A stretch of 64,000 nucleotides of DNA from a virus. The stretch is taken from the IMG/VR virus record IMGVR_UViG_3300029448_008324, positions 32,001 through 96,000 of that record. The stretch is one strand, 5' to 3'. The position numbers and the translations under genes were made by a program. Positions 30,796 through 55,008 of the stretch are shown here, piece after piece (the stretch's first letter is position 1; each line of letters starts with the position of its first letter). Under the pieces are notes generated by a model, which saw nothing but the letters and a program-made list of their open reading frames with translations, did no database searches and was not told where the DNA came from.

Positions 30796-31359
30796 ATGAC
30801 AGAACAAAAATATATTCTCACAGACATCGACGGAGTTTGCTTAGATTGGCAAAAACAATTTGAAAAATTTTTAGAATTTTACTACCCTGACAAAGATCCA
30901 ACATCAGATCCAACAGCAAGACATGTCACATTAGAAAAAGAAATGGAAGAGTTTATAGTATCTGCTTGGCAAGGTTGGTGTGAACCATTGAGAGATGCTG
31001 TTGACATACTGACAAAATTTAAAAAACAAGGCTATCAGGTGCATGGATGCACAGCAATGGGATTCGATCCATATGCAATTTCACTGAGAAAAATAAATCT
31101 TGAAAGACATTTCCCCAACGTGTTTGACAAATTAGACACCACGTTGGGAGGCCCAGGCCCACAGAAAGAAGCCTGGCTAGAACAGTATCGAGGCAAAGAC
31201 TGTGTATGGGTTGAAGACAAATGGGAAAATGCACTGAGTGGTGCCAACATGGGCATTAAAACTTTTTTGATGAAACAACACTACAACGCACACAACAATG
31301 ATGACAGAATAACCAAGGTTGACAATTGGCAACAGATATATTATTATATTAACAAATGA
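30796..31359 (+). CDS. HAD-family phosphatase (5'(3')-deoxyribonucleotidase-like)
   Basis: LTDIDGV, T, K, WVED motifs. Confidence 0.8.
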   Translation: MTEQKYILTDIDGVCLDWQKQFEKFLEFYYPDKDPTSDPTARHVTLEKEMEEFIVSAWQGWCEPLRDAVDILTKFKKQGYQVHGCTAMGFDPYAISLRKINLERHFPNVFDKLDTTLGGPGPQKEAWLEQYRGKDCVWVEDKWENALSGANMGIKTFLMKQHYNAHNNDDRITKVDNWQQIYYYINK

Positions 31360-32087
31360 CGCAAATGAAAGTATTCGTTGGCTGGGATTCAAGAGAGGAC
31401 ATTGCCTTTCAAGTGGCCAAACATTCAATACAAAAACACAATCCCGATGTTGAAGTATATCCACTAAAATTACCAACACTGCAAGAACTTGGAATATACA
31501 CAAGAGGTGTTGATGCCAAAGCATCTACTGAATTTACATTCTCTAGATTTTTTGTGCCCATGCTGACTGGATACAAAGGTTGGGCATTGTTCATTGACTG
31601 TGACTTTCTTTGCAGAGCAGACATAAAAGAATTATTCAATCAAGCCAATGACAACTATGCAGTAATGGTTGCAAAGCATGATTATACTCCTAAAGAAGGA
31701 ACCAAAATGGATGGCAAACAACAATTACAATATCCAAGAAAAAATTGGTCATCTTGCATGTTGTGGAACTGTGAACATCCTGCAAACAAACTGCTTGATG
31801 CAAATTCCATGAACACTAATGATGGACTATGGCATCATAGATTTGTTTGGTTGGCTGATCATGAGATAGGCGAAATATCACATGAATGGAACTGGCTTAC
31901 TGATTGGTACACTGCCCCTGAAGACGGTGAACCAAAAATGCTTCACTACACAGAAGGTGGTCCATGGTTTGAACATCTACAGGATGTGCCATATGCACAG
32001 CAATGGCGTGATGCTGAAAAAGAATACAAAGCATCTCTAGAAGACACTGTGGATGACAAGATTGCCAAAAACGACGGCGGCTGGTAA
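31356..32087 (+). CDS. Glycosyltransferase (GT-A, GT8-like phage family)
   Basis: FVGWDSRE, STEFTFSRF, FIDCDF, YPRKNWSS, LHYTEGGPW. Confidence 0.85.
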   Translation: MTQMKVFVGWDSREDIAFQVAKHSIQKHNPDVEVYPLKLPTLQELGIYTRGVDAKASTEFTFSRFFVPMLTGYKGWALFIDCDFLCRADIKELFNQANDNYAVMVAKHDYTPKEGTKMDGKQQLQYPRKNWSSCMLWNCEHPANKLLDANSMNTNDGLWHHRFVWLADHEIGEISHEWNWLTDWYTAPEDGEPKMLHYTEGGPWFEHLQDVPYAQQWRDAEKEYKASLEDTVDDKIAKNDGGW

Positions 32088-32102
32088 AACTTAAATAAAA
32101 TT

Positions 32103-32714
32103 ATGTTCACAGGATTGTCCAAAGGATCAGACCAACAAGTGCCATGGCCTTGGACACAAACAGACAACGTAATCGATGATTATGCTACTCTGTTGCCATA
32201 CTTCACACAGTTATCACAAATTGATGAAACTTCTGACCTTAAAGACAATAAAATTTTTACCAGTGCAAATAAAAGATTAAAAATAAAATTTTTACAAGAT
32301 TGGTTAGAACAAGCAGACGAATGGTTAAACAAAAATCTTGAAGAACTTTTAAGTTATTGGCCTCATCATAGAAAATTCCAAAACTACAAAGGCCAAGTGC
32401 AAATCACAAGACAAGCACCTGCTCCCTATAGATTTCCTGTGCATGACGAAAGTTATAACAAATGTTGGAGTGGTGTGATTTATTGTGCCCCTCAAGAAGG
32501 CACAGGCACAGGCATGTACACTAATATCAATGGTAACTCTGTGCAAGATGGACATACAATATCCATTGCAAACAGATGGGGATGTGCAACCTGGAAACCA
32601 AACAGAGCTTTTATATTTGCTGGCATAACTTCTAAAACATGGCATGACTATGAAGCTGTGATTAATGCACACAGAATAACCGTGAATCTTTTCATTCAAA
32701 AAAGAAAACAATAA
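32103..32714 (+). CDS. 2OG-Fe(II) oxygenase-like protein
   Basis: PVHDE, WKPNRA.IF, TWH, R. Confidence 0.7.
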   Translation: MFTGLSKGSDQQVPWPWTQTDNVIDDYATLLPYFTQLSQIDETSDLKDNKIFTSANKRLKIKFLQDWLEQADEWLNKNLEELLSYWPHHRKFQNYKGQVQITRQAPAPYRFPVHDESYNKCWSGVIYCAPQEGTGTGMYTNINGNSVQDGHTISIANRWGCATWKPNRAFIFAGITSKTWHDYEAVINAHRITVNLFIQKRKQ

Positions 32715-32722
32715 ATTAACTT

Positions 32723-34441
32723 ATGTGTGGTATCTATGGTATAACCAAAAAAGACATAAGATTGATTGACTCGTATATTGCCACATGCTGGTACAGAGGT
32801 CCAGATGGTCATGACATATGGAGTGATGATGATGTCACACTAGGACACAATTTACTTTCCATCACATCACAACCATTACAAGGCAAACAACCATGGATCA
32901 CAGACAAAGGCAATGTGTTGGTGTACAACGGAGAAATATTCAACTATCAAGAATTAGTTGACCAATTTCACTTTACACCCAAGACCACTTGCGACACAGA
33001 ACTACTTGCATTTTTACTGGACAAGTTTGGTGTTGATGCAGTCAATCACATTGATTCCATGCATGCCTTTGCTTATTATGACACAAGCAACAAAACAATT
33101 ATTCTCAGTAGAGATCATGTGGGCATCAAACCTTTGTTCTATGCAGAGATATCTGATGGCATAATATTTGGATCTGAAATCAAAGGCCTGTTGGATCATG
33201 TGCCCAACAGCAGATGTATAGATGAGTTGGCAGCTGCATGTATGTCTTACTCTGGCAACAACGTCACAAGAAACACTATGTTTAGCAACATCAAAAAAGT
33301 GATGCCAGGCGAAACTGTGGTGTACAGCGTAGCACACAAAAAATTTATATCGCACAACAGAACTGTGATCACTCCAACATCAAATTCATCATTAGACTAT
33401 GCACAGTTTAGACACGAAGCACATGAAACTGTAAAAATGTCCACACTTGGCATCAGAAAGTTTGGTATGTTTTTGTCAGGAGGATTAGACAGCACACTAG
33501 TTGCATATGAATTAAAAAAGATACTAGGCGAATTGGATTCTTTTACCAATCAAATGAATCCTAATGTGAGAATAGGCGAAGACTTCAATGATGATGCAAA
33601 CTGTGCCAAAAGATTTGCTGAAGACTTTGACTTCAATCATCATCCTGTAGAAATGACCCCTAAACTTGTAGAACAATTTTGGGAAGACTCAATGTTCTTG
33701 ATGGAACAGCCTGTGTATAACATGAATCTGCCAATGTATTATTACACCAATAAATTTTTAAGCAACAAGGGAGTTGTTGTAACCATGGCAGGCGACATGG
33801 GGGATGAACTGTTAGGGGGATATCCTAAGTATTGGAAACTTAGAAAAGATCTTCCTAAATCATTCAACGACATGATATGGAAATGGATGCACCGTATCAA
33901 AAGGCCAATTAAACTTGTTAGTAAAATTGATCCTCAAGACATACACAGTGAATTGTGTAAAATAATACCACAAGAGTTATGGAACGACAAAGATCCAATC
34001 AATTCTTACATGGCAGTTGATTGTGTTACACAGGTGCCAGAAGAATTTTTTTCACGCAACGATCAGTTTGGTATGCGTTTTTCTATGGAGGGTAGGTTTC
34101 CATTGGCAACAAAAAGATTCATGAAATACTGCATGGACATACACAGTGATCACAAAATAGGACGTGAAAAATCAGAAACAAAACTGCCAACTAAATTAGC
34201 ATACAAAGGTTACATGCCAGACTACATCATTAACAAAATGAAAACTGGTTGGAGTGTGCCACTGATATATTGGATCAGCGACCACAAACATCTCAATGAT
34301 CTAGCCATGCAATACATGACCGGCAACGATTGTTTGAAAGATGTTGTGGGCATGGACAATTGGGACCAAAAGAAAACTAAAGTGGTAAGTTGGATGATGC
34401 GGACATGGGCAAAATCTTACTGCATGCAATTGAAGGCATAA
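32723..34441 (+). CDS. asnB: Glutamine-dependent amidotransferase, asparagine synthetase B family
   Basis: MCGI, RGPD, YNGEIFN, RDHVGIKPL, LSGGLDS, GDMGDELLGGY. Confidence 0.9.
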   Translation: MCGIYGITKKDIRLIDSYIATCWYRGPDGHDIWSDDDVTLGHNLLSITSQPLQGKQPWITDKGNVLVYNGEIFNYQELVDQFHFTPKTTCDTELLAFLLDKFGVDAVNHIDSMHAFAYYDTSNKTIILSRDHVGIKPLFYAEISDGIIFGSEIKGLLDHVPNSRCIDELAAACMSYSGNNVTRNTMFSNIKKVMPGETVVYSVAHKKFISHNRTVITPTSNSSLDYAQFRHEAHETVKMSTLGIRKFGMFLSGGLDSTLVAYELKKILGELDSFTNQMNPNVRIGEDFNDDANCAKRFAEDFDFNHHPVEMTPKLVEQFWEDSMFLMEQPVYNMNLPMYYYTNKFLSNKGVVVTMAGDMGDELLGGYPKYWKLRKDLPKSFNDMIWKWMHRIKRPIKLVSKIDPQDIHSELCKIIPQELWNDKDPINSYMAVDCVTQVPEEFFSRNDQFGMRFSMEGRFPLATKRFMKYCMDIHSDHKIGREKSETKLPTKLAYKGYMPDYIINKMKTGWSVPLIYWISDHKHLNDLAMQYMTGNDCLKDVVGMDNWDQKKTKVVSWMMRTWAKSYCMQLKA

Positions 34442-35217
34442 CCAGAAGCCATTTCATCAAGAGTAAACTGCTGATGTGCTAGATGCCATAACCAAGGTTC
34501 TCTGTCTGGCCGATTTGGATTTTCAATATTTTCAAACTTTGTTGCCATCGGATAAGCTGAACATTCGGGTCCACATATTACAGGAATACCCATGCACACA
34601 GCTTTTATAGCAACCATTGAATTGAATGTAACCACGCACCATGCATCTTTGAGATCTTGTTCTAAAGGGGGTTGATCTCCTGTTTTGTCAAATCCTTTCA
34701 ACTGTGTAATTCCGTTTGATGTTTGCACTTGAGGATTCAAAGGCTTGTCTCTCACCCTTATTTCACGGTTTGTTTGCTGTTTTAAGGTCTCTACAGTAGT
34801 GTCTAACCATTGCTGTGCATCAAAGAACCATTCAATTGCTCCAGTTGGAGGACATACAACAACTTGTGTTCCAGTTGTTTGCCATGGCACTACATCTTGT
34901 TGAAAGTGTTGTTCGTATCTGTCAGGTGTTTGCTCTGTAAGTTCAGCATTAGTGTGTGCATTTTTGGTTACTCTATACCAATTTGTTTTGTTGTCATGTC
35001 CTGCTTTGAAATAAGCATGATCACAAAAATAAAAGTCATGCTCACCACGTTTCATCATGTCGCCTGCGCCTCTGAGTATGCCCCAATAAAAGTATTCATC
35101 ATCGGGCATAGGTTGTCCATTTGGAATAGGATCGATAATCACACCGTTGGTACCTTTGGCCCACTGTTGCACAATGCCCTCTGTGGCTTTACGCATGGTT
35201 CTAACGCAACGCATCAT
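34417..35217 (-). CDS. Capsule_synth (KpsC/KpsS)-like glycosyltransferase
   Basis: VRDKP...AWCVVTFNS.VAIKAV..GIPV; LA..QFT..EM..G. Confidence 0.6.
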   Translation of the reverse strand: MMRCVRTMRKATEGIVQQWAKGTNGVIIDPIPNGQPMPDDEYFYWGILRGAGDMMKRGEHDFYFCDHAYFKAGHDNKTNWYRVTKNAHTNAELTEQTPDRYEQHFQQDVVPWQTTGTQVVVCPPTGAIEWFFDAQQWLDTTVETLKQQTNREIRVRDKPLNPQVQTSNGITQLKGFDKTGDQPPLEQDLKDAWCVVTFNSMVAIKAVCMGIPVICGPECSAYPMATKFENIENPNRPDREPWLWHLAHQQFTLDEMASGYAFNCMQ

Positions 35218-35992
35218 ACATCCTTCCAAACATGTCTTTGAACAAACCAGATTCTATTTCTTCCTGTGTGTATTGATGCCAACTGAGTGTTGCCAACCAA
35301 TCTTCACGATTGTTGGTATAAATTGGCGTGCCAAAATTTTCAATAGTTTGCGACACAGGACGTGCAGGACATCTTGCATGACAATACACCGGCACTCCTT
35401 GAATAATAGCATCAATTGAAACCATCGAACATGATGTTACCACGCAGTGTGCATGTTTCAAGTCTTCTGACAGAGGTACATCGGCATATGCAGGACCACT
35501 CTTGCCATTTTTCCTTGGCTTGTGTCTGACCTTGATAGGCATGTTGGTCTGTGTGCGTAGCCATTCAACAGTTTGTTGTTCCCAATTACGTTGTCCAATG
35601 TATGAATTAACTGTGATAGAAGATGGTGCAACCAAAATGTAATCGCCTTTGTGTTCACGCCATGGTTTGATGTCGATGTGTTGTATTCTATTGCGTGGAA
35701 GGTCTTGCATAATTTGTGTGACATGAATATCTCCAAAACAAATTCTCCAAAAATATTCTCCTTGTGGATTCACCGCTTCTTTCAAAGGATTCCATCTACC
35801 CCAGTAAGGCATGTCACAAAACAACCAAGGTTGTTGATTGTTTTTTAGTGCAACTGCTCTATTGTAGTTGCCAACAGCTAGTCCCCACATGGTTGGAATC
35901 CCTTGTGGATTGTGATATTTTTGCATGGGGCCAAGTGTATACCATGCTTTAGAATCTTTGCCGTGGCCATTGTTGATTACATTTAGTTTCAT
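35201..35992 (-). CDS. Capsule_synth (KpsC/KpsS)-like glycosyltransferase
   Basis: VRHKP...AHCVVTSCS.VSIDAI..GVPV. Confidence 0.6.
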   Translation of the reverse strand: MKLNVINNGHGKDSKAWYTLGPMQKYHNPQGIPTMWGLAVGNYNRAVALKNNQQPWLFCDMPYWGRWNPLKEAVNPQGEYFWRICFGDIHVTQIMQDLPRNRIQHIDIKPWREHKGDYILVAPSSITVNSYIGQRNWEQQTVEWLRTQTNMPIKVRHKPRKNGKSGPAYADVPLSEDLKHAHCVVTSCSMVSIDAIIQGVPVYCHARCPARPVSQTIENFGTPIYTNNREDWLATLSWHQYTQEEIESGLFKDMFGRMYDALR

Positions 35993-36801
35993 TTAATTTT
36001 ATCCCAATAATTGTTTTTGTGTGGACGATAAATGTCTGTGCGTTTGGAACGACCTACTACCTTGCGTGCTCCTTTGAGATGATCCATGTATGCACCCAAA
36101 GGCGAATTAATAAACACATGCCCTCCTGGAATGTGTGGATGTCCTTCTGAAATGTTGAAAGACTGCATGCCACGTTCTGTATACTTTTTTTGCAATACCC
36201 AAAACAAATAAGAATCATGATATTCAATTTCGTTGAACAATGAATCTGTGCGATACATGTCTTGCCAGTCTTGCATGAATGATTGATTGTGTAAGGATCT
36301 AGTGTCGTAGATTACAAAGCCGCACTCAGGATAAATTTTTTGTCTACCAAGATATGCACAATAATGATTTTCTGGAAGGAGGCTCTCAATGAAACCATCT
36401 GGAACATCAGAATGGGTAACAACATCTGCGTCCAGCCAGACAACTAAGTCTGAGTCTGCATTGAGAGCCGCATGTGATACACAATATGATTTATGTGCAA
36501 ACTTGACAGCGTCCCACAAATATGAATATTTTGCGTTTGTTTCTGTGCCTGGCTTAATGCCATTTGCATGGGGATTGGATTTGTGTCTTTGCTTAAATTC
36601 TTTCAACTTAGGACAAGCGTAGTTGATGTCAATCCATTCAACCCTGTCTGAAAATGCTTTGTTGGTAGGCATCCATTCATAGTAGACTTGCAATTTAATT
36701 GATTGAGGCCAGTGTTTGTCAAAGGTCTCAATCATGCGTTTGCCATACTGTCCGTATCCAGACTGAGACATTGTGGTTATAACCGTTTTGGATGTTGGCA
36801 T
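35989..36801 (-). CDS. GT-A glycosyltransferase (DAVKFAHK family)
   Basis: WLDAD DxD, YLGR, ECGF, HDS, DHLKG. Confidence 0.75.
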   Translation of the reverse strand: MPTSKTVITTMSQSGYGQYGKRMIETFDKHWPQSIKLQVYYEWMPTNKAFSDRVEWIDINYACPKLKEFKQRHKSNPHANGIKPGTETNAKYSYLWDAVKFAHKSYCVSHAALNADSDLVVWLDADVVTHSDVPDGFIESLLPENHYCAYLGRQKIYPECGFVIYDTRSLHNQSFMQDWQDMYRTDSLFNEIEYHDSYLFWVLQKKYTERGMQSFNISEGHPHIPGGHVFINSPLGAYMDHLKGARKVVGRSKRTDIYRPHKNNYWDKIK

Positions 36802-36844
36802 GGTGGCAAGTATTTAAATAGCACATATTGAAAGTTGATGTATC

Positions 36845-37708
36845 GTGAAAAATATTTTAGTCACCGGAAGCAATGGTTTTATAGGCTCGAATCTTGTGCC
36901 AGCACTGGAAAAACATTACAAAGTTTTTTGTCATGACAGAGCAGATGGCGACTTGTGTACACAACAAAATTTTCCACAAGTAGATGCAGTATTTCATTTG
37001 GCGGCAAATGTATCCACGCATGAATTTTATACTAAAAGTTTTGAAGTGATCAAAAACAATGTTACTGCCACAATCAATTTGTGTGAATTTTATCGAAAAC
37101 AAGAACAAAAACCTTTATTCATCTACGCAGGCACGTCAGAGGCACAAGCAGGGGCTACAGAACATTTTGATTACAAGATACCAACTGACGAATCCTGTCC
37201 GTTTGTAATTACAGATCCTAAAAATTTAAGATGGTCATATGCTTCTAGCAAAGCTATTGGTGAACAAATTGTTATTGCATCCGGTTTGCCTTACATAATT
37301 TTTAGGCCTTTCAATGTGTATGGACCAAAACAAACTGGACATTTTATTCCAGAATTCATAGAAAGAGCACTCAAGAATAAATTTGAATTGTATGGTCACA
37401 CAAACACAAGGAGTTGGTTACACATAGACGATTGTGTAGATGCACTCATGTCACTTCTTCAAAACTCTAATATGACCACTGGAGAAATTTTCAACATTGG
37501 ACATTCAGATGAAATCGCTGTCATTGACGTGGCAAAGTGTATTCTCAAGCACATGGAAAAAGATGTAGATATAGCACTACACGACGCACCCTTAGGCAGT
37601 GTGTCAAGAAGAGCACCAGACATCAACAAAATAAAAAACATTGTTGGATGGATTCCAAAAATTAATTTAGATGAAGGAATCAAGAACACTGTGGAGGCCA
37701 TGACATGA
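36845..37708 (+). CDS. NAD-dependent epimerase/dehydratase (UDP-GlcA decarboxylase-like)
   Basis: TGSNGFIG, HLAA, RWSYASSK, FNVYGP. Confidence 0.88.
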   Translation: MKNILVTGSNGFIGSNLVPALEKHYKVFCHDRADGDLCTQQNFPQVDAVFHLAANVSTHEFYTKSFEVIKNNVTATINLCEFYRKQEQKPLFIYAGTSEAQAGATEHFDYKIPTDESCPFVITDPKNLRWSYASSKAIGEQIVIASGLPYIIFRPFNVYGPKQTGHFIPEFIERALKNKFELYGHTNTRSWLHIDDCVDALMSLLQNSNMTTGEIFNIGHSDEIAVIDVAKCILKHMEKDVDIALHDAPLGSVSRRAPDINKIKNIVGWIPKINLDEGIKNTVEAMT

Positions 37709-38502
37709 AAGTTGGCGTAATTGGTATCGGTGTGGTAGGCAATGCAAACAAAGTAGGATTTGAACAACTAGGTCATGAAGTAATGGTGCATGATATTAAA
37801 CTTGGAACAAACATCAACAATGTCTTAGACACAGAAGCAGTGTTTGTTTGTGTGCCAACTCCAAGTGCAAAAGATGGCAGTTGTGATACAACCATTGTAA
37901 AAAGTGTGATTATGGATTTAAATCATCTTGGATATCAAGGAATAGTTGCAATAAGATCAAGCACAGTACCAGGATTTTGTCAGTCAATGATTGATGAATA
38001 CACAAAATTAAAAATTTGTTTTGTACCTGAGTTTATTAGAGAAAGACATTCAGTTGATGACTTTACAAAAGATCACTCTATTCTTGTCATAGGCACAGAA
38101 GACAACACAACCTTTAATGTAATTAAAAAATGTCACGGTCATTATCCCAAACATGTACAACAACTAAAACCAACTGAAGCAGAAATTTGCAAATACTACA
38201 TGAACATCTACGCCGCTTTGAGAATTACCTATGCAAACATAGTATATGAAGTTGCAAAAAAATTCGATTGTGATTACACTGCTATCAAAGATGCGTATGT
38301 CAAAACAGGAAGACATGCTGACATGTATCTTGATGTTGATCCTGCCTTGCGTGGATATGGAGGTGCGTGCTTGCCTAAGGATACTAAAGCATGGATACGC
38401 TTGTTAAAAGATCTAAATCTCGATTATGAATTATTTGAAACTGTTCAAGAAGATAATAAAAAATTTAAAACAACAATTTTTCCAGGAATGAGACCAGAAT
38501 GA
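37705..38502 (+). CDS. UDP-glucose/GDP-mannose dehydrogenase family, lacking the C-terminal domain
   Basis: GIGVVG, VCVPTP, STVPG, PEF.RE, EAE..K, GYGGACLPKD; only 265 aa. Confidence 0.85.
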   Translation: MKVGVIGIGVVGNANKVGFEQLGHEVMVHDIKLGTNINNVLDTEAVFVCVPTPSAKDGSCDTTIVKSVIMDLNHLGYQGIVAIRSSTVPGFCQSMIDEYTKLKICFVPEFIRERHSVDDFTKDHSILVIGTEDNTTFNVIKKCHGHYPKHVQQLKPTEAEICKYYMNIYAALRITYANIVYEVAKKFDCDYTAIKDAYVKTGRHADMYLDVDPALRGYGGACLPKDTKAWIRLLKDLNLDYELFETVQEDNKKFKTTIFPGMRPE

Positions 38503-39326
38503 GATCATTAGAAGTTGCAACCACATACAACAAAAAATATTATGACATCTGCGGGAAAAAGATGATAGAAACATTCATCGAGTTTTGGCCTAAGGATATT
38601 AATTTATACTGCTATTGGCAAGAACAGGTACCTGAGATATTTGCAGACAATGTGCATTATATAGAATTATACAAAGCACAGCCTCAGCTGAAACAATTTG
38701 TAGATGCAAATAAAAATGACCCAGTTAAATGTGGTATGAAAAATGGACAATACTCCTTTCAGCGTGACGGAGTAAAATTTAGTCACAAAGTTTTTGCACA
38801 GTCACATCGAATTGTTAATTCATCATCTGACATGTTGTTATATTTGGACGCAGACACATACACACATGCAACACCAAATTTAAATTATCTTAATGAGATA
38901 TTACCAGAAAATGCACTTGCAACTTTTTTTGGAAGACCTAAATTGTATGACGAAACTGGTTTTTACATGCACAATTTAAAACATGCCAAAGCAACAGACT
39001 GGGCAAATACCATGGAGAGAATTTATCTTAATGGTGAGTTATGGAACTATGAAATGCAAGTAGATTGTTATACCATGTATAAAGCAAGGCAGGAACACCA
39101 TAATTCTTTTTGTTTAGATCTAGTAGAACATCATCTTTCACAGCACGGTACAGCTCTAGGCAAAAGTCATCCATTTGTTAATTCACCACTTGGCTTATTT
39201 TTAGATCATTTGAAAGGTGATAGAAAAGAGATTGGACACTCTAAAATTTCAGATCTCAAAGAAACCAATCTACGCCAAAATATACAAGCCGATCATTGGA
39301 AACGTATAGATAACAAAAATGAATAG
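38499..39326 (+). CDS. GT-A glycosyltransferase (DGVKFSHK family)
   Basis: YLDAD, ETGF, DHLKG. Confidence 0.75.
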   Translation: MRSLEVATTYNKKYYDICGKKMIETFIEFWPKDINLYCYWQEQVPEIFADNVHYIELYKAQPQLKQFVDANKNDPVKCGMKNGQYSFQRDGVKFSHKVFAQSHRIVNSSSDMLLYLDADTYTHATPNLNYLNEILPENALATFFGRPKLYDETGFYMHNLKHAKATDWANTMERIYLNGELWNYEMQVDCYTMYKARQEHHNSFCLDLVEHHLSQHGTALGKSHPFVNSPLGLFLDHLKGDRKEIGHSKISDLKETNLRQNIQADHWKRIDNKNE

Positions 39327-40053
39327 AACCATAGAACTAGCAACCACATACAACAAAAAATATTATGATCTTTGTGGTAAAAGGATGATTGAATCATTTG
39401 TGCAACACTGGCCCAAACATTGCACGCTCCATGTGTACTGGCAAGAACAACAGCCAGAAATCATAGGAGACAACATAGTGTATCATGAACTGTACAAAGT
39501 ACAACCACAACTCAAAGAGTTTGTAGACAAATGGAAAGACGATCCAGAAAAAAATGGCTGGCGTGAAGATAGACAAAAGTGGGTTTGGAAAAATGACGGA
39601 GTAAAATTTAGTCACAAAGTTTTTGCACAGACACACAGAATTAAAAATTCAACCGCTGATGTAATACTGTATTCAGATGCTGACACTTTGTACACAGCAA
39701 AACCAAATTTGAATTACTTGTCTGAAATTTGTCCAAATGATGCACTATGCACATTTTTTGATAGACCAAAATTAAGAGATGAAACAGGTTTTTACATGCA
39801 CAATCCAAGACATCCTAGAGCAAAAGATTGGGCAAACAGGATGGAAGAGATATATCTCACAGGCGAACTTTGGGGATATGATAACATGCAGGCGGATCAA
39901 TATACAATGGCCATTGGTAGAGATTCATTCAAAGATTGCAAACAGACAGATTTGATGAAATGGTATCCAGGAATCAAAAGCAGCGATCCAGTGCCACATT
40001 CGCCACTTGCAGAATTTTTAGATCACATGAAAGGGGACAAAAAAAATGGTTAA
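39319..40053 (+). CDS. GT-A glycosyltransferase, tandem paralog of 38499
   Basis: YSDAD, ETGF, DHMKG; nucleotide blocks shared with the upstream gene. Confidence 0.75.
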   Translation: MNRTIELATTYNKKYYDLCGKRMIESFVQHWPKHCTLHVYWQEQQPEIIGDNIVYHELYKVQPQLKEFVDKWKDDPEKNGWREDRQKWVWKNDGVKFSHKVFAQTHRIKNSTADVILYSDADTLYTAKPNLNYLSEICPNDALCTFFDRPKLRDETGFYMHNPRHPRAKDWANRMEEIYLTGELWGYDNMQADQYTMAIGRDSFKDCKQTDLMKWYPGIKSSDPVPHSPLAEFLDHMKGDKKNG

Positions 40054-45262: not shown

Positions 45263-45885
45263 TCGATGGATTTTTTATTCCAGATGGTGATTTGCCCAAA
45301 CATCACATTGCAGAACCTGTTGTGCAACACGATGCTATCCTCAATCAAAAAGTTTTAGAATACACTACAACAAGACGTCACATGATTGATGTTGGCGGAA
45401 ATGTTGGAAGATGGAGTGTGGACTTTGCCAAACACTTTGATACAGTGTCTGCTTTTGAACCAGCGCCTTATCACATTGAATGTTTTGAAAAAAATTGTGC
45501 ACCATATCCTAATGTAAAATTGTATCCATATGGACTCAGCAACACAAACAAAAAAGGAAACTTAGAAGTAGCAGTTGAACATCATCTAGGATCAACTAGA
45601 GTAATTCCAAGTGATGATGGTACCATAGAACTAAAAACACTAGACCAACATGGATTCACAGATGTGGATGTGTTGAAAGTTGACGTTGAAGGATTAGAAA
45701 TAGATGTGTTACAAGGCGCCGAACAAACCATTGCGAAATGCAAACCAATAATTGTAATTGAAAGATGTGTGTTCAACAGTGAACGTTTTGGTTTAGACAA
45801 AATGGCAAGCCACAATGAATTGGATCGTCAAGGCTACAAAAGACTATTTAAGATTACCAGAGATTGCATATACGGCCCTAAATGA
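45253..45885 (+). CDS. FkbM-family methyltransferase
   Basis: IDVGGNVG, AFEP, KVDVEGLE..VL.GA. Confidence 0.9.
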   Translation: MQLVDGFFIPDGDLPKHHIAEPVVQHDAILNQKVLEYTTTRRHMIDVGGNVGRWSVDFAKHFDTVSAFEPAPYHIECFEKNCAPYPNVKLYPYGLSNTNKKGNLEVAVEHHLGSTRVIPSDDGTIELKTLDQHGFTDVDVLKVDVEGLEIDVLQGAEQTIAKCKPIIVIERCVFNSERFGLDKMASHNELDRQGYKRLFKITRDCIYGPK

Positions 45886-46226
45886 AATCATATGAAAAAC
45901 TAGACAAAGAGATCTTTGTGATAGAAAATCAACAAGGCAACACATCAAAAACATATGACTTAGATGAATATTCAAAAATTGTTCCAACACAATTTGTAAC
46001 AGATTACTATGATTACAACAAACCACACAGACAAACCAAATCTAATCACGAATCTACATGGCGATTGATCACATGTATGTTTGGTGTTATAATATGTAAA
46101 TGCGGTGATCACACCATTGAATTATCGCGAGAAAACAAAATACAGCTAATGATAGGTCCAAACATTAAATTTCAATACCACAACAAAAGTGGCAAATCTG
46201 TGTGTCATGTGAGATCAAGTGCATGA
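45882..46226 (+). CDS. Divergent cupin (FdtA/WxcM-like)
   Basis: Weak similarity only; sugar-operon context. Confidence 0.4.
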   Translation: MKSYEKLDKEIFVIENQQGNTSKTYDLDEYSKIVPTQFVTDYYDYNKPHRQTKSNHESTWRLITCMFGVIICKCGDHTIELSRENKIQLMIGPNIKFQYHNKSGKSVCHVRSSA

Positions 46227-46855
46227 GCAGATTGGTTGTATTCGGAGACAGTTGGCCCTATGGTGCAGAACTAAAAGCAGGAGAAAAAACTTTTGGCGAA
46301 CTGTTGCATGAAAAATTAGGCACAGACAGTTTTGTAAATTGCTCACAAGAAGGCACATCAATTGATCATCTGGTTGTGCAACTCGAACAATACATGTCTC
46401 AAGCAGATGTTGGCACAGACATTGCTGTGTTTTTCATTAGCAATCCTATAAGATATATGATTCACAAAAAAGGCAATTGGGACACCATTAGACCAACTGG
46501 TGATAAAAGCATGAACACAAGATTTTATTACGAATATCTACAATCAGATGAATTGGATAACCATCGAGCCAACACTTGTATTCTTGCTTTACAAAATATG
46601 TGTAGATATAGCACAACAATAGTGAAAGACATTTATCTCGAAGGATGGTCTGCCATAGATTGGTCATATCCTAGCATCAACAAACAAAAGTTTTTGCCTA
46701 AATCTGCCTTGCAAATGTTTGAAGCAAATATGAATAAACAAACAAACGAACTGGTTAAAAATCAAAGGAATCCTTTCATATATCCCAACAAGTATCATCC
46801 CAATCAAAAAGGACATACACTGATTGCAGAGGAATTATATAAATTTGTCAAATGA
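46223..46855 (+). CDS. SGNH/GDSL-like esterase or acyltransferase
   Basis: FGDSW..G, G.S, HPN..GH. Confidence 0.7.
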   Translation: MSRLVVFGDSWPYGAELKAGEKTFGELLHEKLGTDSFVNCSQEGTSIDHLVVQLEQYMSQADVGTDIAVFFISNPIRYMIHKKGNWDTIRPTGDKSMNTRFYYEYLQSDELDNHRANTCILALQNMCRYSTTIVKDIYLEGWSAIDWSYPSINKQKFLPKSALQMFEANMNKQTNELVKNQRNPFIYPNKYHPNQKGHTLIAEELYKFVK

Positions 46856-47715
46856 AAATAGCAGTGTTTCCAAAAACAAGCGCCATGGCGGGCAAGCCAG
46901 TGATGGCAGCTTTTATACAGTCGCTCCAAGGCGAAGACTACGCCATTTGCGAAAATCACGAAAGACCAGAAGCAGATGTAGTGGTCATGTGGTCATGGCT
47001 TCTTGGAATGTATGGACGTGATGCCATATACAATCATTACAAAAAAACAAATACAAAATTTTTAATATTAGAAGTTGGTGCATTGCAACGCAACACATCT
47101 TGGAAGGTTGCTATCAACGGCATCAACAGAGATGCTGATTTTGGCAATCAATCTGTTGATGATAGTAGACTAAAATTGTTTGACCTTACCTTATCAGATT
47201 GGCATGCATCAGGTGACCATATTATAGTGTGTGGCCAAAATGAAAGATCAATTGCATGGGATCAAGGCAACACCGCACAATGGGTCAACAAAATGATTGA
47301 TTGGATACGCAGTCAAACAGATAGACCCATTTGGTTTAGACCACATCCTAGGTTTCCTGTGCATTACAAGAATGCACAAATAAAAAATGTATTTGTATCA
47401 AAACCAAAAAAGTTAAATCACAAAGGCAATATTGATGAAGTTGACTTTGCACAAGCAATGTCACATGCACATGCTGTGGTAAACTATAATTCTAATCCTG
47501 CAATCGAAGCAGTGCTATCTGGCGTTCCTGTGTATGTAGACCAGTCATCATTATGTTGGGATGTAGCAAAACCAATTGGCGATGACATAGAAAATCCAGT
47601 CAAACCTGATCGCTCTGCATGGCGCAAACAGATAAGTTATACTGAATGGTTCGTAGAAGAAATAAAACAAGGCCTTCCATGGAAGAGGTTGAGACCACGT
47701 TTGATCGATGGGTGA
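46852..47715 (+). CDS. Capsule_synth (KpsC/KpsS)-like glycosyltransferase
   Basis: CGQ, FRPHP, AHAVVNYNSNPAIEAVLSGVPV. Confidence 0.65.
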   Translation: MKIAVFPKTSAMAGKPVMAAFIQSLQGEDYAICENHERPEADVVVMWSWLLGMYGRDAIYNHYKKTNTKFLILEVGALQRNTSWKVAINGINRDADFGNQSVDDSRLKLFDLTLSDWHASGDHIIVCGQNERSIAWDQGNTAQWVNKMIDWIRSQTDRPIWFRPHPRFPVHYKNAQIKNVFVSKPKKLNHKGNIDEVDFAQAMSHAHAVVNYNSNPAIEAVLSGVPVYVDQSSLCWDVAKPIGDDIENPVKPDRSAWRKQISYTEWFVEEIKQGLPWKRLRPRLIDG

Positions 47716-47789
47716 CCAAAATATACTTTGGTATCATGCTGTCTTTTCCAATCATAATGGTGGTTCTTATCTACTTTGAAACAAGATGA
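47679..47789 (+). CDS. Small single-TM peptide (25-36 aa)
   Basis: (MEEVETTFDRW)VTKIYFGIMLSFPIIMVVLIYFETR; GTGA and ATGA overlaps link it to both neighbours. Confidence 0.5.
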   Translation: MEEVETTFDRWVTKIYFGIMLSFPIIMVVLIYFETR

Positions 47790-48487
47790 AAAGTTTCGTT
47801 TGTGTATGCACAGGCACCAAGTATGGCACAACTTATGTGGACAAACTCTACAACATGGTGTCAAGACATGCCAACGACTTTAAATTTTTTGTAATCACAG
47901 ACAGCAAAAAAGCATGGCGTCCTGAGATCAACCAAATTGTAGTATCTCCATTGTTTCCAACATGGTGGAATAAGATCCACATGTTTAGAGATGATATAGG
48001 ACTTGAAGGCAGAGTGCTATTCATGGATTTGGATGTTGTCATATTCAAAAACATTGATGAGTTTTGGGACTTTGAAGGCGATGCATTTGTTATCATACAA
48101 GACTTCAATAGATGTAGAATTAAAAATTATCATGTGCGTAATTCATCTGTGATGAAATTTGTTGCAGGACAAGAAGTAAATGTATGGAATGAGTTTGTTG
48201 CTGATTCAAAAAAGGTCATGCAGAGGTTTCGTGGAGATCAAGATTACATGACAGCAAAATATCCTGGTGGTCCCATATGGCCCAAAGAATGGGTGATGTC
48301 TTACAAATGGGAGATAGGATTAGAACCAGGAGAAAAAAGACGCTCGCCACACGATCTATTTGTCAAACAATCGTACACTGATCGCAAACATGGACTGCCA
48401 GAAGATTGTGCTGTGGCTGTGTTTCATGGCAAACCAAATCCTGCAGAAGTAGAAAAAGATCCGCTTGTGATTGAAAATTGGCGATGA
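47786..48487 (+). CDS. GT-A glycosyltransferase
   Basis: GTKY...YV..LY.MV.R, WWNKI, FMDLDVV, NSSV, GDQ, FHGKPNP. Confidence 0.82.
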   Translation: MKSFVCVCTGTKYGTTYVDKLYNMVSRHANDFKFFVITDSKKAWRPEINQIVVSPLFPTWWNKIHMFRDDIGLEGRVLFMDLDVVIFKNIDEFWDFEGDAFVIIQDFNRCRIKNYHVRNSSVMKFVAGQEVNVWNEFVADSKKVMQRFRGDQDYMTAKYPGGPIWPKEWVMSYKWEIGLEPGEKRRSPHDLFVKQSYTDRKHGLPEDCAVAVFHGKPNPAEVEKDPLVIENWR

Positions 48488-49220: not shown

Positions 49221-49724
49221 ATGTCGCTATTCAAATTTGAACAATATGGAAATGAAAAGCCTGTGCCTTCTGGAGAAGTGCATGTGGTAAACCAAGATGC
49301 GGATGAGCCAATCACTGAATACAACTTGGATCAATATGTTGAAAATAGAAATGTGTTACTGATAGGCATCCCCGGCGCATTTACTCCCACTTGCACAGAA
49401 AAACACTTGCCAGGATTTGTTGCTAATGAGCAAAATTTATACAACAAAGGCATTGATGAAATAATATGTATCAGCGTTAACGATCCACATGTAATGTTTG
49501 CATTTTCAGATTTCATTAACTACGAAGGATCAAACATCACAATGGCAGCTGATCCTTTCGGCGAAGTTTCCGAACAATTAGGATTACTGACTAACATGGG
49601 AGTGCTCGGCAATAGATGCAAAAGATTTGCCGCCATCATCCAAGAAGGAAAAATAGTAGACATTATGGTTGATGAACGTGGACTAGATGTGTCATCAGCA
49701 GAAAACTGTCTGCAAAAATTATAA
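49221..49724 (+). CDS. Peroxiredoxin (Prx5 / type II)
   Basis: PGAFTPTC...HLPG, SVND..VM, R..RFA. Confidence 0.93.
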   Translation: MSLFKFEQYGNEKPVPSGEVHVVNQDADEPITEYNLDQYVENRNVLLIGIPGAFTPTCTEKHLPGFVANEQNLYNKGIDEIICISVNDPHVMFAFSDFINYEGSNITMAADPFGEVSEQLGLLTNMGVLGNRCKRFAAIIQEGKIVDIMVDERGLDVSSAENCLQKL

Positions 49725-50419
49725 TGACTATCTCTAATTACCAAGGAGAAGAAATCATTGACAAAATTATTATCAAACAAGGCAAAAAACATTATGAAAA
49801 AGTGTGGATGCCTCGCACAGTGTTCAATGATTCAGATGGCAAAGATGCTTACATCATAGGCAACGGAGAATCAAGAAAAGATTTTGATTTGTATTCTTTG
49901 CCGCAAGACACATATGGCTGTAATGCCTTGCACAGAGATTACGAACCAGATTTTTTGATTGTAATTGATCAGCACATGTATCAAGAAGTTATTCACAGCA
50001 AATATGGTGAAAAAAATATTGTCTACACCAATCGTAACAATATGAAAAAACATGCTGGCACTTGTCATCTCATACCACAAAATCCTCACGTGGGTGCAGG
50101 AACCACAGCTATGCACGTGGCTATTCATGATGGTCATACCAATTTGATATGCCTTGGTTTTGACTGCAACGAAGATGCTCCCAACAACAATGTGTACAAA
50201 AATACCAAATGTTATCACGATAGCAACACAGTAGTGCATCAAACTGTGTGGGGCAAGCAAATTTACCAATTGATAGCAAAACATCCAGATGTGCAATTTT
50301 CTTTTGTGGGCGGTGATCCTTACCAACCATTTTTTGAACTTCACAACTGCAACCAGTGGACATACAACAAATTAAATACGCATATAAATAATACAAATGA
50401 AACTACCAGATCAAATTAA
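49724..50419 (+). CDS. Maf/DUF115 / CstII-like putative nonulosonate or Kdo transferase
   Basis: IIGNGESR, YGCNA, LIVID, G..A...A...G...LGFD. Confidence 0.55.
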   Translation: MTISNYQGEEIIDKIIIKQGKKHYEKVWMPRTVFNDSDGKDAYIIGNGESRKDFDLYSLPQDTYGCNALHRDYEPDFLIVIDQHMYQEVIHSKYGEKNIVYTNRNNMKKHAGTCHLIPQNPHVGAGTTAMHVAIHDGHTNLICLGFDCNEDAPNNNVYKNTKCYHDSNTVVHQTVWGKQIYQLIAKHPDVQFSFVGGDPYQPFFELHNCNQWTYNKLNTHINNTNETTRSN

Positions 50420-50759
50420 AATAGGATGGAAAGACGTTGATCTACAACGAGTAAAAGTTTCATTTGTCAAAAACAATTCAGATTATTGGGGACAGTATAT
50501 TGCTCGCCAAAACAAAATTGAAATACAAGAAGAAGCAGAAGGACAAGATCTAGCCAACACACTGGTGCATGAAATTATTCACGCTATTGTGTATCATTCA
50601 TCTCTCAACGCAGAAGGCGGTCCATTGTATGAAAGCAATGACGAAGAACAAGCAGTCAATTCAATGACCAACTGGCTGATGGGTGTGTTCAAAGACAACC
50701 CATGGCTGTTAGACTTACTCAAAAGCAGTATCCACGGTAAAGCCAACAAGAAAAAGTAA
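50397..50759 (+). CDS. Small HExxH metallopeptidase-like protein
   Basis: TLVHEIIHA...EEQAV; TATAAATA upstream. Confidence 0.7.
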   Translation: MKLPDQIKIGWKDVDLQRVKVSFVKNNSDYWGQYIARQNKIEIQEEAEGQDLANTLVHEIIHAIVYHSSLNAEGGPLYESNDEEQAVNSMTNWLMGVFKDNPWLLDLLKSSIHGKANKKK

Positions 50760-51715
50760 TGGCTCACAAGTCATTGCACTGTTCAGAACCTTACAACACC
50801 CTCTACATAGAACACACTAATCAAGGCAGAATGGCACCTTGTTGTGCTTTTTTTCCAACCATAGATCCAAACGATTATGATACAGAACTGCAAAAAGTAA
50901 AAGAAGATTTGCACAAAGGCGTATGGCCTACAAATTGTGTTTCGTGCAAACAACATGAAGAAAAGAAACTCGACAGTAGAAGATTAACCAGCGGACAGCA
51001 AAAAATACATCCACACATAAAAAATGTTGAAATAAATTTAGGCAACTTGTGTAATTTGAAATGTGCAATATGTAATCCTAAGTTTTCATCTAGATGGCTG
51101 TCTGATGCAAAACATTTTGCAGAATTCGATAGCAATGGATTTTACAATATACCAAATAGCAGTGTGAAAGATGTTGGCAAACATATTGATTGGCACAGCA
51201 TTAGATATCTCCATTTTAACGGTGGCGAACCTTTGCTTAACAATCAACATTTAAGATATCTAATGCGAGTAATAAATCAAGATCAAACTGAAGTATATTA
51301 CAACACTAACGGGACAACCAAAGTTTCAGACGCTGTGTTTAACATTTGGACTAACTTTATTAGAGTAAAATTAATATTTTCAATTGACGATGTAGGACAA
51401 AGATTTGAATATCAAAGATATCCAGCAAAATGGAAAGAAATTGAAAATAATTTATTATGGTTCAAAACACATGCTCCAGACAATGTTATGTTTGGTATAA
51501 ACAGAACAATAAGTCATTTCAACAAGCCATACCTTAAAGACTTAGACGAATGGTTCCAAACAAATTTCTCACATTCACAAAACGGAATAAAAAATGAATT
51601 TACAAATCAACTTGCTTGGGGGCCTGCTTCTCTTCAAAATACCAGGGAGCAATTTGTTAAATTTGTGCAAAAACTGAATGCTGTTAGAAAAATTTCCTAT
51701 TACGAGCCAATATAA
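50759..51715 (+). CDS. Radical SAM protein with N-terminal twitch-like domain (paralog of 27328)
   Basis: APCC..C..C, GNLCNLKCAIC, GGEP, NTNG, SID, YQRYP..W. Confidence 0.88.
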   Translation: MAHKSLHCSEPYNTLYIEHTNQGRMAPCCAFFPTIDPNDYDTELQKVKEDLHKGVWPTNCVSCKQHEEKKLDSRRLTSGQQKIHPHIKNVEINLGNLCNLKCAICNPKFSSRWLSDAKHFAEFDSNGFYNIPNSSVKDVGKHIDWHSIRYLHFNGGEPLLNNQHLRYLMRVINQDQTEVYYNTNGTTKVSDAVFNIWTNFIRVKLIFSIDDVGQRFEYQRYPAKWKEIENNLLWFKTHAPDNVMFGINRTISHFNKPYLKDLDEWFQTNFSHSQNGIKNEFTNQLAWGPASLQNTREQFVKFVQKLNAVRKISYYEPI

Positions 51716-51732
51716 CAGCGACTTTTTTGTGG

Positions 51733-51761: not shown

Positions 51762-51793
51762 AGTGGTATTAACATTACAAGAGGTAACAACAG

Positions 51794-52129: not shown

Positions 52130-52172
52130 ATTGAAAGAACTTAGAATAGCAAACGTAAACAAAATAATTCTT

Positions 52173-52203
52173 ACTGCTGAGTCTAATTGGGCTCAGCGGT
52201 TTT
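52173..52203 (+). terminator. Intrinsic terminator-like hairpin before uvsW
   Basis: ACTGCTGAGTCT-AATT-GGGCTCAGCGGT followed by TTT. Confidence 0.55.
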
Positions 52204-52215
52204 GGAGATCAGTTC

Positions 52216-53670: not shown

Positions 53671-53690
53671 ATCCACATATAATAAAACAT

Positions 53691-54200
53691 ATGCAATTGT
53701 TAACACTCGAGAACGAAGCCTATCTGCTCGATAGGGTGCCAGATCACGTTGAAGAAGACATGCGTTTCGCTGTGTTGGATAATTCAGACACAAGCAATCC
53801 TGATTTCTTTTTTATTCCATTAATTTACTTAGAATCATTTTCAGCACCATCAGCTGTATTGCAGATTGGCAACAGCAAAATACAGATGCCTTTGGATTGG
53901 CACATACTGCTAGGTGATCCAGAGTGTGGCGACTTGGAGATTGTGCCGCTGACTTCTTTGAATGATAGATTGTTTCATGCTTTTTGTTTTAATCCTGTGT
54001 CAGACTCTATGCCCGCATACAATGAAGTAAGAATCACTAATATCTACAACGAAGTTGAATGGTTCTTTCCAAGGACAAAATCTAATCAGTTGATCAGTGT
54101 TCCTATACTGTCAGACAACAATCCGCCATGTGCTTATTTTATCAAAGAAATAAATCGCAACACAGATACAATACTGCTAGACAATTTATTTCATGCGTAA
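53691..54200 (+). CDS. Hypothetical phage protein
   Basis: 169 aa; TTGACT-N18-TATAAT ends 7 nt upstream. Confidence 0.7.
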   Translation: MQLLTLENEAYLLDRVPDHVEEDMRFAVLDNSDTSNPDFFFIPLIYLESFSAPSAVLQIGNSKIQMPLDWHILLGDPECGDLEIVPLTSLNDRLFHAFCFNPVSDSMPAYNEVRITNIYNEVEWFFPRTKSNQLISVPILSDNNPPCAYFIKEINRNTDTILLDNLFHA

Positions 54201-55008
54201 ACAAACATTACCAACTTTGCAGTTTCACAATGATGCTCCAATTAAAATCATTGCTGGCCCTTGCCAAATTGAATCAGAAGATCATGCAATGCAGATGGCA
54301 GAAAAAATTGTTAAGATTTGTTATGAACAAGGCATGCGTGTGGTTTATAAATCTTCGTTTGACAAAGCCAATCGTTCTTCAATTGGATCAGCAAGAGGTG
54401 TTGGCATAGACAAAGGTTTAAAAATTTTACAAAAAGTTAAAAAGGAATTTGACGTGCCTGTAATCACAGACATACATCAACCTGAACAAGCCGGTTTTGT
54501 GGAAGAGGTTGTTGACATCATACAAATACCTGCATTCCTGTGTAGACAAACTGATTTGATTATTGCAGCTGCCAAAACAAATTGTTGGGTGAATGTTAAA
54601 AAAGGACAGTTTTTGTCCTATCAAGAAGTTGCCAACATTAAAGACAAATATCCAGATAACAAAAAATTTATGATCACAGAACGCGGCACTACATTTGGTT
54701 ACAACAATCTAGTTGTGGACATGCGTGGTATCCATCACATGCGAGATCACTATCCTGTCATTATGGATGGCACACACTCTGTGCAACAACCAGGAGGTAT
54801 GGGCAAATCATCAGGTGGTGACAGAACATTTGTTGAACCATTGTGTCGTTCAGCAGTTGCTCTTGGTATTGCTGGTGTATTTCTTGAGGTTCACAATGAT
54901 CCTAACAATGCACCATCCGATGGACCTAACATGCTTACTCCAGATGAATTTAGGAAGTTAATTACCAAATTAAAAATACTTGATTCTACAGTCAAACAAA
55001 AGTTATAA
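54193..55008 (+). CDS. kdsA: Kdo-8-phosphate synthase
   Basis: IAGPCQIES, KSSFDKANRSS, QIPAFLCRQTDL, KKGQFL, ERG..FGYNNLVVD, THSVQQPGG, SDGPN. Confidence 0.96.
   Translation: MRKQTLPTLQFHNDAPIKIIAGPCQIESEDHAMQMAEKIVKICYEQGMRVVYKSSFDKANRSSIGSARGVGIDKGLKILQKVKKEFDVPVITDIHQPEQAGFVEEVVDIIQIPAFLCRQTDLIIAAAKTNCWVNVKKGQFLSYQEVANIKDKYPDNKKFMITERGTTFGYNNLVVDMRGIHHMRDHYPVIMDGTHSVQQPGGMGKSSGGDRTFVEPLCRSAVALGIAGVFLEVHNDPNNAPSDGPNMLTPDEFRKLITKLKILDSTVKQKL

Follow-up and report, generated by a model that had tools for sequence, protein, structure and literature searches.

Islands of glycan genes are among the largest unexplained gene blocks of the abundant phages of the ocean, and their target has never been shown. 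What does such an island assemble, and onto which acceptor? The question is raised here by a 64,000-nucleotide stretch of viral DNA (the window; bases 32001-96000 of the 108,411-bp IMG/VR record IMGVR_UViG_3300029448_008324, CheckV completeness 29%), in which about 29.1-49.2 kb, together with the gene 49724, forms an island of genes for glycan assembly in an uncultured jumbo T4-like myovirus from the sea (genes are named by their lowest window coordinate). The reading that we favour, with a probability of roughly one half, is that this phage island would build a glycan that contains ulosonic acids, delivered from cytidine monophosphate (CMP) donors by direct displacement, and tailored sugars, optionally assisted by KdsA, on a cytoplasmic and phage-intrinsic acceptor. 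Three points open the question to test: acidic sugars activated with CMP are the predicted donors of the conserved core, a KpsC-like fold occurs throughout a large phage family without its catalytic Asp, and cultured carriers exist in Caulobacter phage CcrSC and its relatives and in Pelagibacter phage Mosig.

Fold and catalytic residues of the quartet

The enzymes on which this reading turns are the four members of family A, one of two paralog families defined by all-against-all BLASTP (E values between its members, 9e-26 to 1e-7):

34417-35229, minus strand: family A paralog (KpsC fold) of R-D-K-P type, with Pro in the Gln position and the nucleophile missing
35201-35992, minus strand: family A paralog (KpsC fold) of R-H-K-P type, with Ser in the Gln position and Val in that of the nucleophile
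42911-43894, plus strand: family A paralog (KpsC fold) of RPHP type; Q161-P-K-D-N165, with Asn at the nucleophile site
46852-47715, plus strand: family A paralog (KpsC fold) of RPHP type, the modelled member; Q129-N-E-R-S133

Evidence on the fold comes from an AlphaFold model of the 46852 protein, with a predicted local distance difference test score (pLDDT) of 92. The first 24 rows of a Foldseek search with this model are exclusively KpsC, KrkA or WbbB (E 2.5e-8 to 1e-5), and an independent VIA search likewise places KpsC first (Z 13.3, with a root-mean-square deviation of 4.2 over 245 aligned residues, and Z 13.0), followed by WbbB (12.2) and then a generic GT-B protein (10.3). At the level of profiles, hhalign of family A against KpsC-N, KpsC-C and KpsS of Escherichia coli (kpsC and kpsS sequences taken from strain UTI89) gives a probability of 94.4%, an E value of 8.9e-8 and 181 aligned columns; the comparison with KpsC-N alone was weak (4% probability), and its two-residue gap is superseded by the three-sequence profile. 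Family A is thus homologous to KpsC/KpsS, with a modified GT-B fold of the KpsC/WbbB type. Ordinary sequence searches hardly reveal this kinship: Capsule_synth scores 13 bits against a threshold of 20 in the window protein, matches weakly in nine of 44 members (best E 5e-4), and neither a 4-member nor a 44-member profile found anything meaningful among PDB sequences, so that KpsC was reached solely by the fold searches and hhalign. Long fused relatives of family A gave DUF6716 alone in Pfam, below threshold.

The family is large, with 5,591 cluster representatives at E <= 0.001, and the quartet are anciently diverged paralogs within it. Its nearest Atlas clusters are viral without exception, and judged from these clusters it is apparently restricted to phages; among the nearest viral folds to the model are one protein from Caulobacter phage CcrColossus and four from Tetraselmis virus 1.

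Retaining beta-transferases of 3-deoxy-D-manno-octulosonate (Kdo) are defined by a CMP-binding (K/R)xHP motif, a QXXXD motif and a general-base Glu; in QXXXD the Asp acts as the covalent nucleophile and the Gln binds the Kdo carboxylate, and the Asp is absolutely conserved in GT99, GT107 and GT140 (PMC10148158, PMC12887879). The corresponding residues of the reference enzymes are D160 in KpsC, D232 in WbbB and D193 in KrkA. In the hhalign alignment, E74 of the modelled protein pairs with KpsC E66 (within L-E-x-G), Q129 with Q156, S133 with D160, and RPHP with K192-V-H194-P195. Across 236 members, position 74 is acidic in all, R163 is present in 233 and P166 in 234, while position 165 is His in 180 and Lys in 54, and position 129 is Gln in 179 and Pro in 55. 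Position 133, by contrast, is Ser in 150 members, a gap in 55 and Asp in as few as 19, with no conserved acid near it anywhere in the 236-member alignment. The four window paralogs carry Ser, Asn, Ile and Val at this site and none carries Asp; 46852 and 42911 retain the Gln and the full (K/R)xHP, and 34417 and 35201 have Pro or Ser for the Gln and Lys for the His.

Family A therefore shares with KpsC/KpsS (GT107), WbbB (GT99) and KrkA (GT140), the Capsule_synth (PF05159) enzymes, the modified GT-B fold, the general-base Glu, the Gln of QXXXD, (K/R)xHP and a C-terminal S...G-x-P-V nucleotide-binding stretch. It differs in having the consensus QxxxS where the retaining beta-Kdo transferases have QXXXD, and roughly one member in four, 34417 and 35201 among them, departs further from the KpsC type through Lys for His and Pro (Ser in 35201) for Gln. 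Its proteins are also shorter (263-327 amino acids) and single-module, lack a membrane-anchoring tail and score below the Pfam threshold themselves. On this alignment, family A retains a putative donor-binding and acid/base apparatus and has lost the nucleophile, the residue that defines the only known double-displacement glycosyltransferases. Having lost the Asp, the quartet fall outside the retaining beta-Kdo transferases as these are known. A preliminary description of this DNA, which had taken them for KpsC/KpsS enzymes, was right as to fold and homology, but the Asp that this activity demands is missing from all four. It may be proposed that family A transfers a CMP-activated ulosonic acid, of the Kdo type or a nonulosonate, by a direct and probably inverting displacement that would not pass through a covalent Asp-sugar intermediate.

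The island, its conserved core and KdsA

The second paralog family, family B, comprises 35989 on the minus strand together with 38499, 39319 and 41203 (BLASTP E 3e-100 to 3e-29 between members); the preliminary description had delineated both four-member families and, for family A, the motifs R..P, (V/I)(T/N)xxS and G(V/I)PV, and BLASTP and the alignment bear it out. A model of the 38499 protein (pLDDT 94) matches ABO GTA/GTB and BoGT6a at E 5e-8 in Foldseek, and GlyE (Z 13.4), glycogenin (13.2), A64R of chlorovirus PBCV-1 (12.9) and LgtC (12.9) in the VIA search. D117-A-D119, the DxD motif, is invariant among 40 family B sequences, and the family profile found nothing meaningful among PDB sequences. 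On the model, family B is predicted to have a GT-A fold whose nearest kin are the retaining GT6/GT8 enzymes and PBCV-1 A64R.

The third component, 49724, had been called Maf/CstII-like, and at the level of profiles the call is right: judged by its family profile, this protein is predicted to be CstII/Maf-like, since the profile reaches CstII in the PDB (1ro8 and 1ro7, E 1.4e-7 and 2.6e-7) and CstI (2p2v, 1e-4). The N-terminal GNGxS of the family aligns with that of Campylobacter CstII, with which 49724 also shares the central SG..A..G..L.G.D motif. Distant members of the family carry PF06002 (five of 33 members) and PF01973 (six of 33), and some homologues carry both; 49724 itself stays under the Pfam gathering thresholds of both families (for PF01973 it scores 15.9 bits where 34.6 are required). 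Compared with CstII and Maf, it is a 231-amino-acid protein reduced to the core domain.

Altogether the island, a block of about 20 genes for sugar transfer and tailoring, holds 11 soluble glycosyltransferases, the CstII/Maf-like protein as a twelfth, and about ten nucleotide-sugar tailoring enzymes. The features besides family A, annotated with Pfam and NCBIfam (SDR, short-chain dehydrogenase/reductase), are as follows:

29106-29663, plus strand: RmlC-like dTDP-4-dehydrorhamnose 3,5-epimerase (PF00908, 68.8 bits); probable upstream edge of the island, after a tRNA-Ser
29655-30656, minus strand: radical SAM/SPASM enzyme (PF04055 and SPASM in Pfam)
30796-31359, plus strand: HAD-type phosphatase-like protein, weak (Pfam NT5C/Hydrolase below threshold; not KdsC by TIGR01670)
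31356-32087, plus strand: GT8 glycosyltransferase (PF01501, 27.3 bits against a cut-off of 24.3)
32103-32714, plus strand: 203-amino-acid protein behind a late-type TAAATA (weak PHROG match 'minor coat protein', E 2e-4)
32723-34441, plus strand: AsnB-type glutamine amidotransferase (Pfam Asn_synthase 140 bits, TIGR01536 276 bits)
35989-36801, minus strand: family B GT-A, first gene of the minus-strand operon behind a late-type motif
36811-36820, both strands: palindromic TATTTAAATA between divergent operons, late-promoter-like
36845-37708, plus strand: SDR nucleotide-sugar dehydratase/epimerase (Pfam Epimerase, 141 bits)
37705-38502, plus strand: mini UDP-sugar 6-dehydrogenase (GxGxxG and the Cys of GGxCxxKD kept)
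38499-39326, plus strand: family B GT-A, the modelled member (AlphaFold2; nearest folds GT6/GT8)
39319-40053, plus strand: family B GT-A, 58% identical to 38499
40046-41206, plus strand: ColD/RfbH-type sugar 3-dehydratase using pyridoxal or pyridoxamine phosphate (PLP/PMP) (DegT 246 bits; His-His for Lys)
41203-42039, plus strand: family B GT-A (BLASTP)
42036-42911, plus strand: SDR epimerase/reductase (Pfam)
43891-44520, plus strand: GT25 glycosyltransferase (PF01755, 45.9 bits)
44525-45262, plus strand: short SDR (Pfam)
45253-45885, plus strand: FkbM-family methyltransferase, beside family A in Mosig and CcrSC also
46202-46855, plus strand: possible SGNH esterase/acyltransferase, weak (Pfam Lipase_GDSL)
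47786-48487, plus strand: GT-A-like glycosyltransferase (weak GT8/Nucleotid_trans, below threshold), with a homologue in Mosig
49724-50419, plus strand: predicted GT42 CstII/Maf-like CMP-sugar glycosyltransferase
54193-55008, plus strand: KdsA, Kdo-8-phosphate synthase, between the conserved genes 53691 and 55015
57756-58694, plus strand: detached SDR epimerase/dehydratase (Pfam)

Much of this inventory had been anticipated. The GT8, GT25, AsnB, FkbM, three SDR epimerases and KdsA all have Pfam or NCBIfam matches, and RmlC (29106) and a fourth epimerase (57756) lie just outside the span 31356-55008, where they had been placed. Among the three other glycosyltransferases that had been counted, GT8 31356 and GT25 43891 are supported by Pfam and 47786 is weaker, below threshold. 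The UDP-sugar dehydrogenase is present, in a mini form: 37705 encodes 265 amino acids that keep the NAD motif and the catalytic Cys, and the whole C-terminal UDP-binding domain is absent. The ColD assignment of 40046, a DegT-family protein, agrees with SFFFSHHMQTMEGG at residues 181-194, where a His stands in place of the PLP-binding Lys of the aminotransferases, a motif which we take to be the signature of the ColD/RfbH 3-dehydratases; RfbH is its best NCBIfam match, though the score of 244 bits falls short of the cut-off of 423. For the two proposed SGNH proteins, 46202 is the sole call with any support (E 0.003, sub-threshold), and none was found for 48478. What does not survive is the idea of one pathway across the whole span, since a peroxiredoxin (49221), an SprT-like protein (50397), a radical SAM enzyme (50759) and the UvsW helicase (52216) stand between the island and KdsA, and the span is thus not one contiguous pathway. 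AsnB 32723 probably amidates a sugar carboxylate, and the variable periphery as a whole (the SDRs, the ColD-type 3-dehydratase, RmlC, the mini dehydrogenase, AsnB, FkbM, GT8 and GT25) would turn host nucleoside-diphosphate sugars into deoxy, uronic, amidated and methylated residues.

The window of this jumbo T4-like myovirus encodes a tail sheath, tail tube, large terminase, gp32-like single-stranded DNA-binding protein, UvsX and UvsW; the last is about 50% identical to its counterparts in the jumbo phages Phosso, Atu_ph07 and PA5oct. No DNA-level match of the region was found among sequenced phages, and there is no shift in GC content over the island.

Which parts of the island are conserved was judged from 80 of at least 595 viral contigs with relatives, scored within 10 kb of the 46852 ortholog. 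Family B and the CstII-like gene each occur in 74 of the 80 loci, all four ortholog types of family A in 53, FkbM in 50 and KdsA in 14. The conserved core is therefore the family A quartet, one or more family B GT-A enzymes and the CstII-like GT42. Islands of this general kind are known from marine T4-like phages, namely the hypervariable cluster of the pelagimyophages (PMC7029224) and the 13 glycosyltransferases with KdsA and KdsB of cyanophage S-SCSM2R (PMC12801897), and the present island resembles them as a large variable block of glycosyltransferases, SDRs, UDP-sugar dehydrogenase and RmlC. GT8 31356 is 44-47% identical to the GT8s of Mosig and S-SCSM2R, and tblastn finds homologues of it (35-47% identity) within the corresponding module of Mosig, CcrSC and S-SCSM2R. 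However, neither the KpsC-fold family nor a CstII-like partner is described for the published islands (PMC7029224, PMC12801897), and a CMP-ulosonate-type core with a nucleophile-less KpsC-fold family would appear to be a new detail on a published kind of island.

KdsA had been proposed as the source of the donor. The gene itself is assigned at equivalog level (NF003543, 388.3 bits against 242; TIGR01362, 365.2 against 314) and its product is 43% identical to KdsA of S-SCSM2R, but the proposal largely fails the co-occurrence test suggested with it. Besides being present in only 14 of the 80 loci, those of the nearest relatives, KdsA lies between 53691 and 55015 in 11 of the 59 loci that have both flanking genes and is absent from the other 48, in most of which the flanking genes are 36-280 bp apart. 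Five close relatives are syntenic including KdsA, yet their island content differs. Isolated phages never have both: family A occurs without KdsA in Mosig, podovirus MW202713 and the CcrSC group, and KdsA without family A in S-SCSM2R and LR756500. This patchiness marks KdsA as a lineage-specific accessory rather than an obligate source of the donor. KdsB, KdsC and KdsD, for which the preliminary description had proposed a search beyond the window, are not in the 108-kb record as judged by PF02348, TIGR01670 and SIS, none of which has a match there; this and every other absence reported here covers the record, about 29% of the genome, and is provisional, some 70% being unseen. S-SCSM2R differs in this respect, having KdsB next to KdsA and no family A by profile search, whereas the present record is without KdsB. 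KdsA might act in this lineage as an optional booster of Kdo-8-phosphate supply that would rely on the KdsC and KdsB of the host.

The genes that flank KdsA, 53691-54200 (phrog_11279) and 55015-55473 (phrog_11758), encode small proteins conserved next to UvsW in 60-65 of the 80 loci and have no Pfam or PDB match; between them lies the slot that has received KdsA in this lineage. About 1 kb 3' of KdsA, 56120-57181 (minus strand, 353 amino acids) is 25% identical (E 8e-11) to a 'glycine amidinotransferase' that adjoins KdsA in cyanophage S-SCSM2R, and a paralog of 56120 lies at 10754-11677 of the record. KdsA may be linked to this amidinotransferase-like gene rather than to the glycan island.

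The acceptor

The acceptor would be cytoplasmic and intrinsic to the phage, with virion proteins the most likely candidates. The 108-kb record contains no sugar-activating enzyme (NTP_transferase nucleotidyltransferase), and in agreement with the preliminary description it holds no lipid-carrier primer (Bac_transf), flippase, polymerase (Wzy) or exporter, nor does the ATP-binding-cassette signature LSGGQ occur in its open reading frames. The absence of this activation and export set is consistent with a cytoplasmic acceptor. The only polytopic membrane proteins of the record were considered as flippases and rejected, being by Pfam a TctA tricarboxylate transporter subunit and a nucleobase (xanthine/uracil) permease. 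A phage nonulosonate pathway was likewise rejected, as no NeuB-family synthase was found in the record. The motifs that had been reported as late-type promoters are present, as TAAATA at 32091-32096 ahead of 32103 and as the palindrome between the divergent operons, TAAATA also standing ahead of the 35989 operon. Of 71 genes, 11 have TAAATA at a distance of 11-18 nucleotides ahead of their start codon, those for the tail tube and terminase among them, where by rough arithmetic about 0.2 would be expected by chance. Moreover, a module that combines family A with GT8, family B, FkbM and a glycosyltransferase resembling 47786 recurs in phages of unrelated hosts: Pelagibacter phage Mosig has it, in Caulobacter phage CcrSC it has the tail-fibre genes on one side and lysozyme on the other, and it adjoins the terminase in a 42.7-kb podovirus. 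This recurrence, the placement in structural regions, the KpsC-like folds in the alga-infecting Tetraselmis virus 1 and TAAATA are together hints at a phage-intrinsic acceptor.

Several considerations weigh against this reading. The case for CMP-ulosonate use made by (K/R)xHP and the Gln is indirect, and in two of the paralogs Lys replaces the His while Pro or Ser takes the place of the Gln; the inverting mechanism is read from the loss of the Asp alone, and the geometry of the KpsC active site, in which the adduct moves about 5 Å to the base, may preclude a direct attack. Both donor and acceptor of family A are predictions. Further, no late motif is suitably placed ahead of the main plus-strand operon, no CMP-sugar synthetase was found in the record, and with a record of about 29% of the genome every absence is open to revision. 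Finally, such islands have been published as serving the modification of host O-chains (PMC7029224, PMC12801897).

That published view is the strongest rival. In it the enzymes would act, on the cytoplasmic side of the membrane, on lipid-linked host intermediates of lipopolysaccharide (LPS), capsule or O-chain, and the host would export the altered glycan and so acquire a changed cell surface, for instance blocking superinfection. The homologues of the island enzymes (KpsC, WbbB, CstII, GT8, GT25, KdsA, ColD) all come from LPS, lipooligosaccharide or capsule pathways; KpsC and KpsS naturally use a lipid acceptor, phosphatidylglycerol, and require no exporter of their own, which also tells against the favoured reading; and island content differs between close relatives as it does in O-antigen loci. 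However, the same core is found in phages of SAR11, of Caulobacter and of unknown marine hosts and in a freshwater podovirus, and KpsC-fold proteins occur in the algal giant virus Tetraselmis virus 1, which infects a host devoid of LPS. The module of CcrSC and that of the podovirus fall within the structural or late region, neither a membrane-anchoring segment nor a partner in the membrane was found, and late-type motifs at two operons would imply late timing for a change of the cell surface. Remodelling of the host envelope is accordingly possible, though on balance unlikely.

The other two alternatives appear quite improbable. That the quartet are true retaining beta-Kdo transferases fed by a phage KdsA, building a beta-Kdo-rich glycan, was the proposal of the preliminary description; the fold and homology to KpsC/KpsS speak for it, as do the synteny of KdsA in the nearest relatives and a contig (L097) in which KdsA directly follows SDR and UDP-sugar dehydrogenase homologues. 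It founders on the nucleophile site described above, where Asp is absent from the quartet and rare in the family, and on KdsA being missing from four-fifths of the loci with both flanks (48 of 59) and from every isolated phage that bears family A. Hypermodification of DNA, with the glycosyltransferases placing a complex glycan on a hydroxylated or hydroxymethylated base of the phage genome, is no better placed, even though this is a T4-like phage with soluble glycosyltransferases. Phage GT94 is known to install a putative Kdo on 5-hydroxymethylcytosine and other clusters add di- or trisaccharides (bioRxiv 10.1101/2023.12.21.572611), and RB69 and DLP3 arabinosylate 5-hydroxycytosine (PMC13326640). 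Against this, neither a ThyA (thymidylate synthase) homologue (PF00303) nor a TET/JBP dioxygenase (PF12851) was found in the 108-kb record, with the unseen remainder in mind; the known DNA glycosyltransferases are T4 beta-GT/GT4-like GT-B or JGT-like GT-A enzymes, not KpsC- or CstII-like, and twelve glycosyltransferases with methyl, amido and deoxy tailoring go beyond any known DNA glycan.

As for the phage-intrinsic acceptor that we favour, its most specific form, in which the nucleophile-less quartet and the CstII-like enzyme, shared by hundreds of phage contigs from marine and fresh waters, build an ulosonic-acid glycan on virion proteins, is a tentative proposal to which we would give rather poor odds. 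It has precedents in the O-glycans of mycobacteriophage capsids and tail tubes and in the capsid glycans of chlorovirus PBCV-1 (A64R, structurally close to family B), which are likewise made by soluble virus-encoded glycosyltransferases without export machinery. It differs from known virion glycosylation in its enzyme families and its predicted acidic ulosonates. Were it true, tailed phages would have their first case of virion glycosylation with acidic sugars (Kdo or nonulosonate), and the GT107-like fold would gain a branch with a new, single-displacement mechanism. A virion acceptor would bear on phage surface chemistry, host recognition and the behaviour of particles in seawater, and an acceptor in the host envelope on superinfection exclusion.

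Neighbouring genes

The surroundings of the island offer further observations. Genes for tRNA-Thr, tRNA-Ala and tRNA-Ser (25534-25687, and 28718-28807 for tRNA-Ser) lie just 5' of it, and the reading frames 28809-29072 and 29106 start right after tRNA-like 3' ends. At 23201-24496, a protein of 431 amino acids with about ten hydrophobic segments is by Pfam (E 2.5e-51) the permease mentioned above; phrog_27398, the PHROG family that it matches at E 7e-135, bears the name 'tail protein', which is probably a mislabel. The full-length TctA lies outside the window, at 7558-8994 of the record on the minus strand (Pfam E 1.4e-92). A second copy of the mini UDP-sugar dehydrogenase, also outside the window (106086-106790 of the record), is 26% identical to 37705, and a homologue with 55% identity adjoins KdsA in contig L097.

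Four radical SAM enzymes surround the island (24542-25444, 27328-28443, 29655-30656 and 50759-51715), two of them with SPASM. CstII/Maf-like and radical SAM genes are neighbours twice in the record, 49724-50419 with 50759-51715 and, in record coordinates, 19769-20374 with 18299-19213, and the second pair are paralogs of the first at 24% and 26% identity. The pairing points to a functional connection for which the glycan reading offers no explanation.

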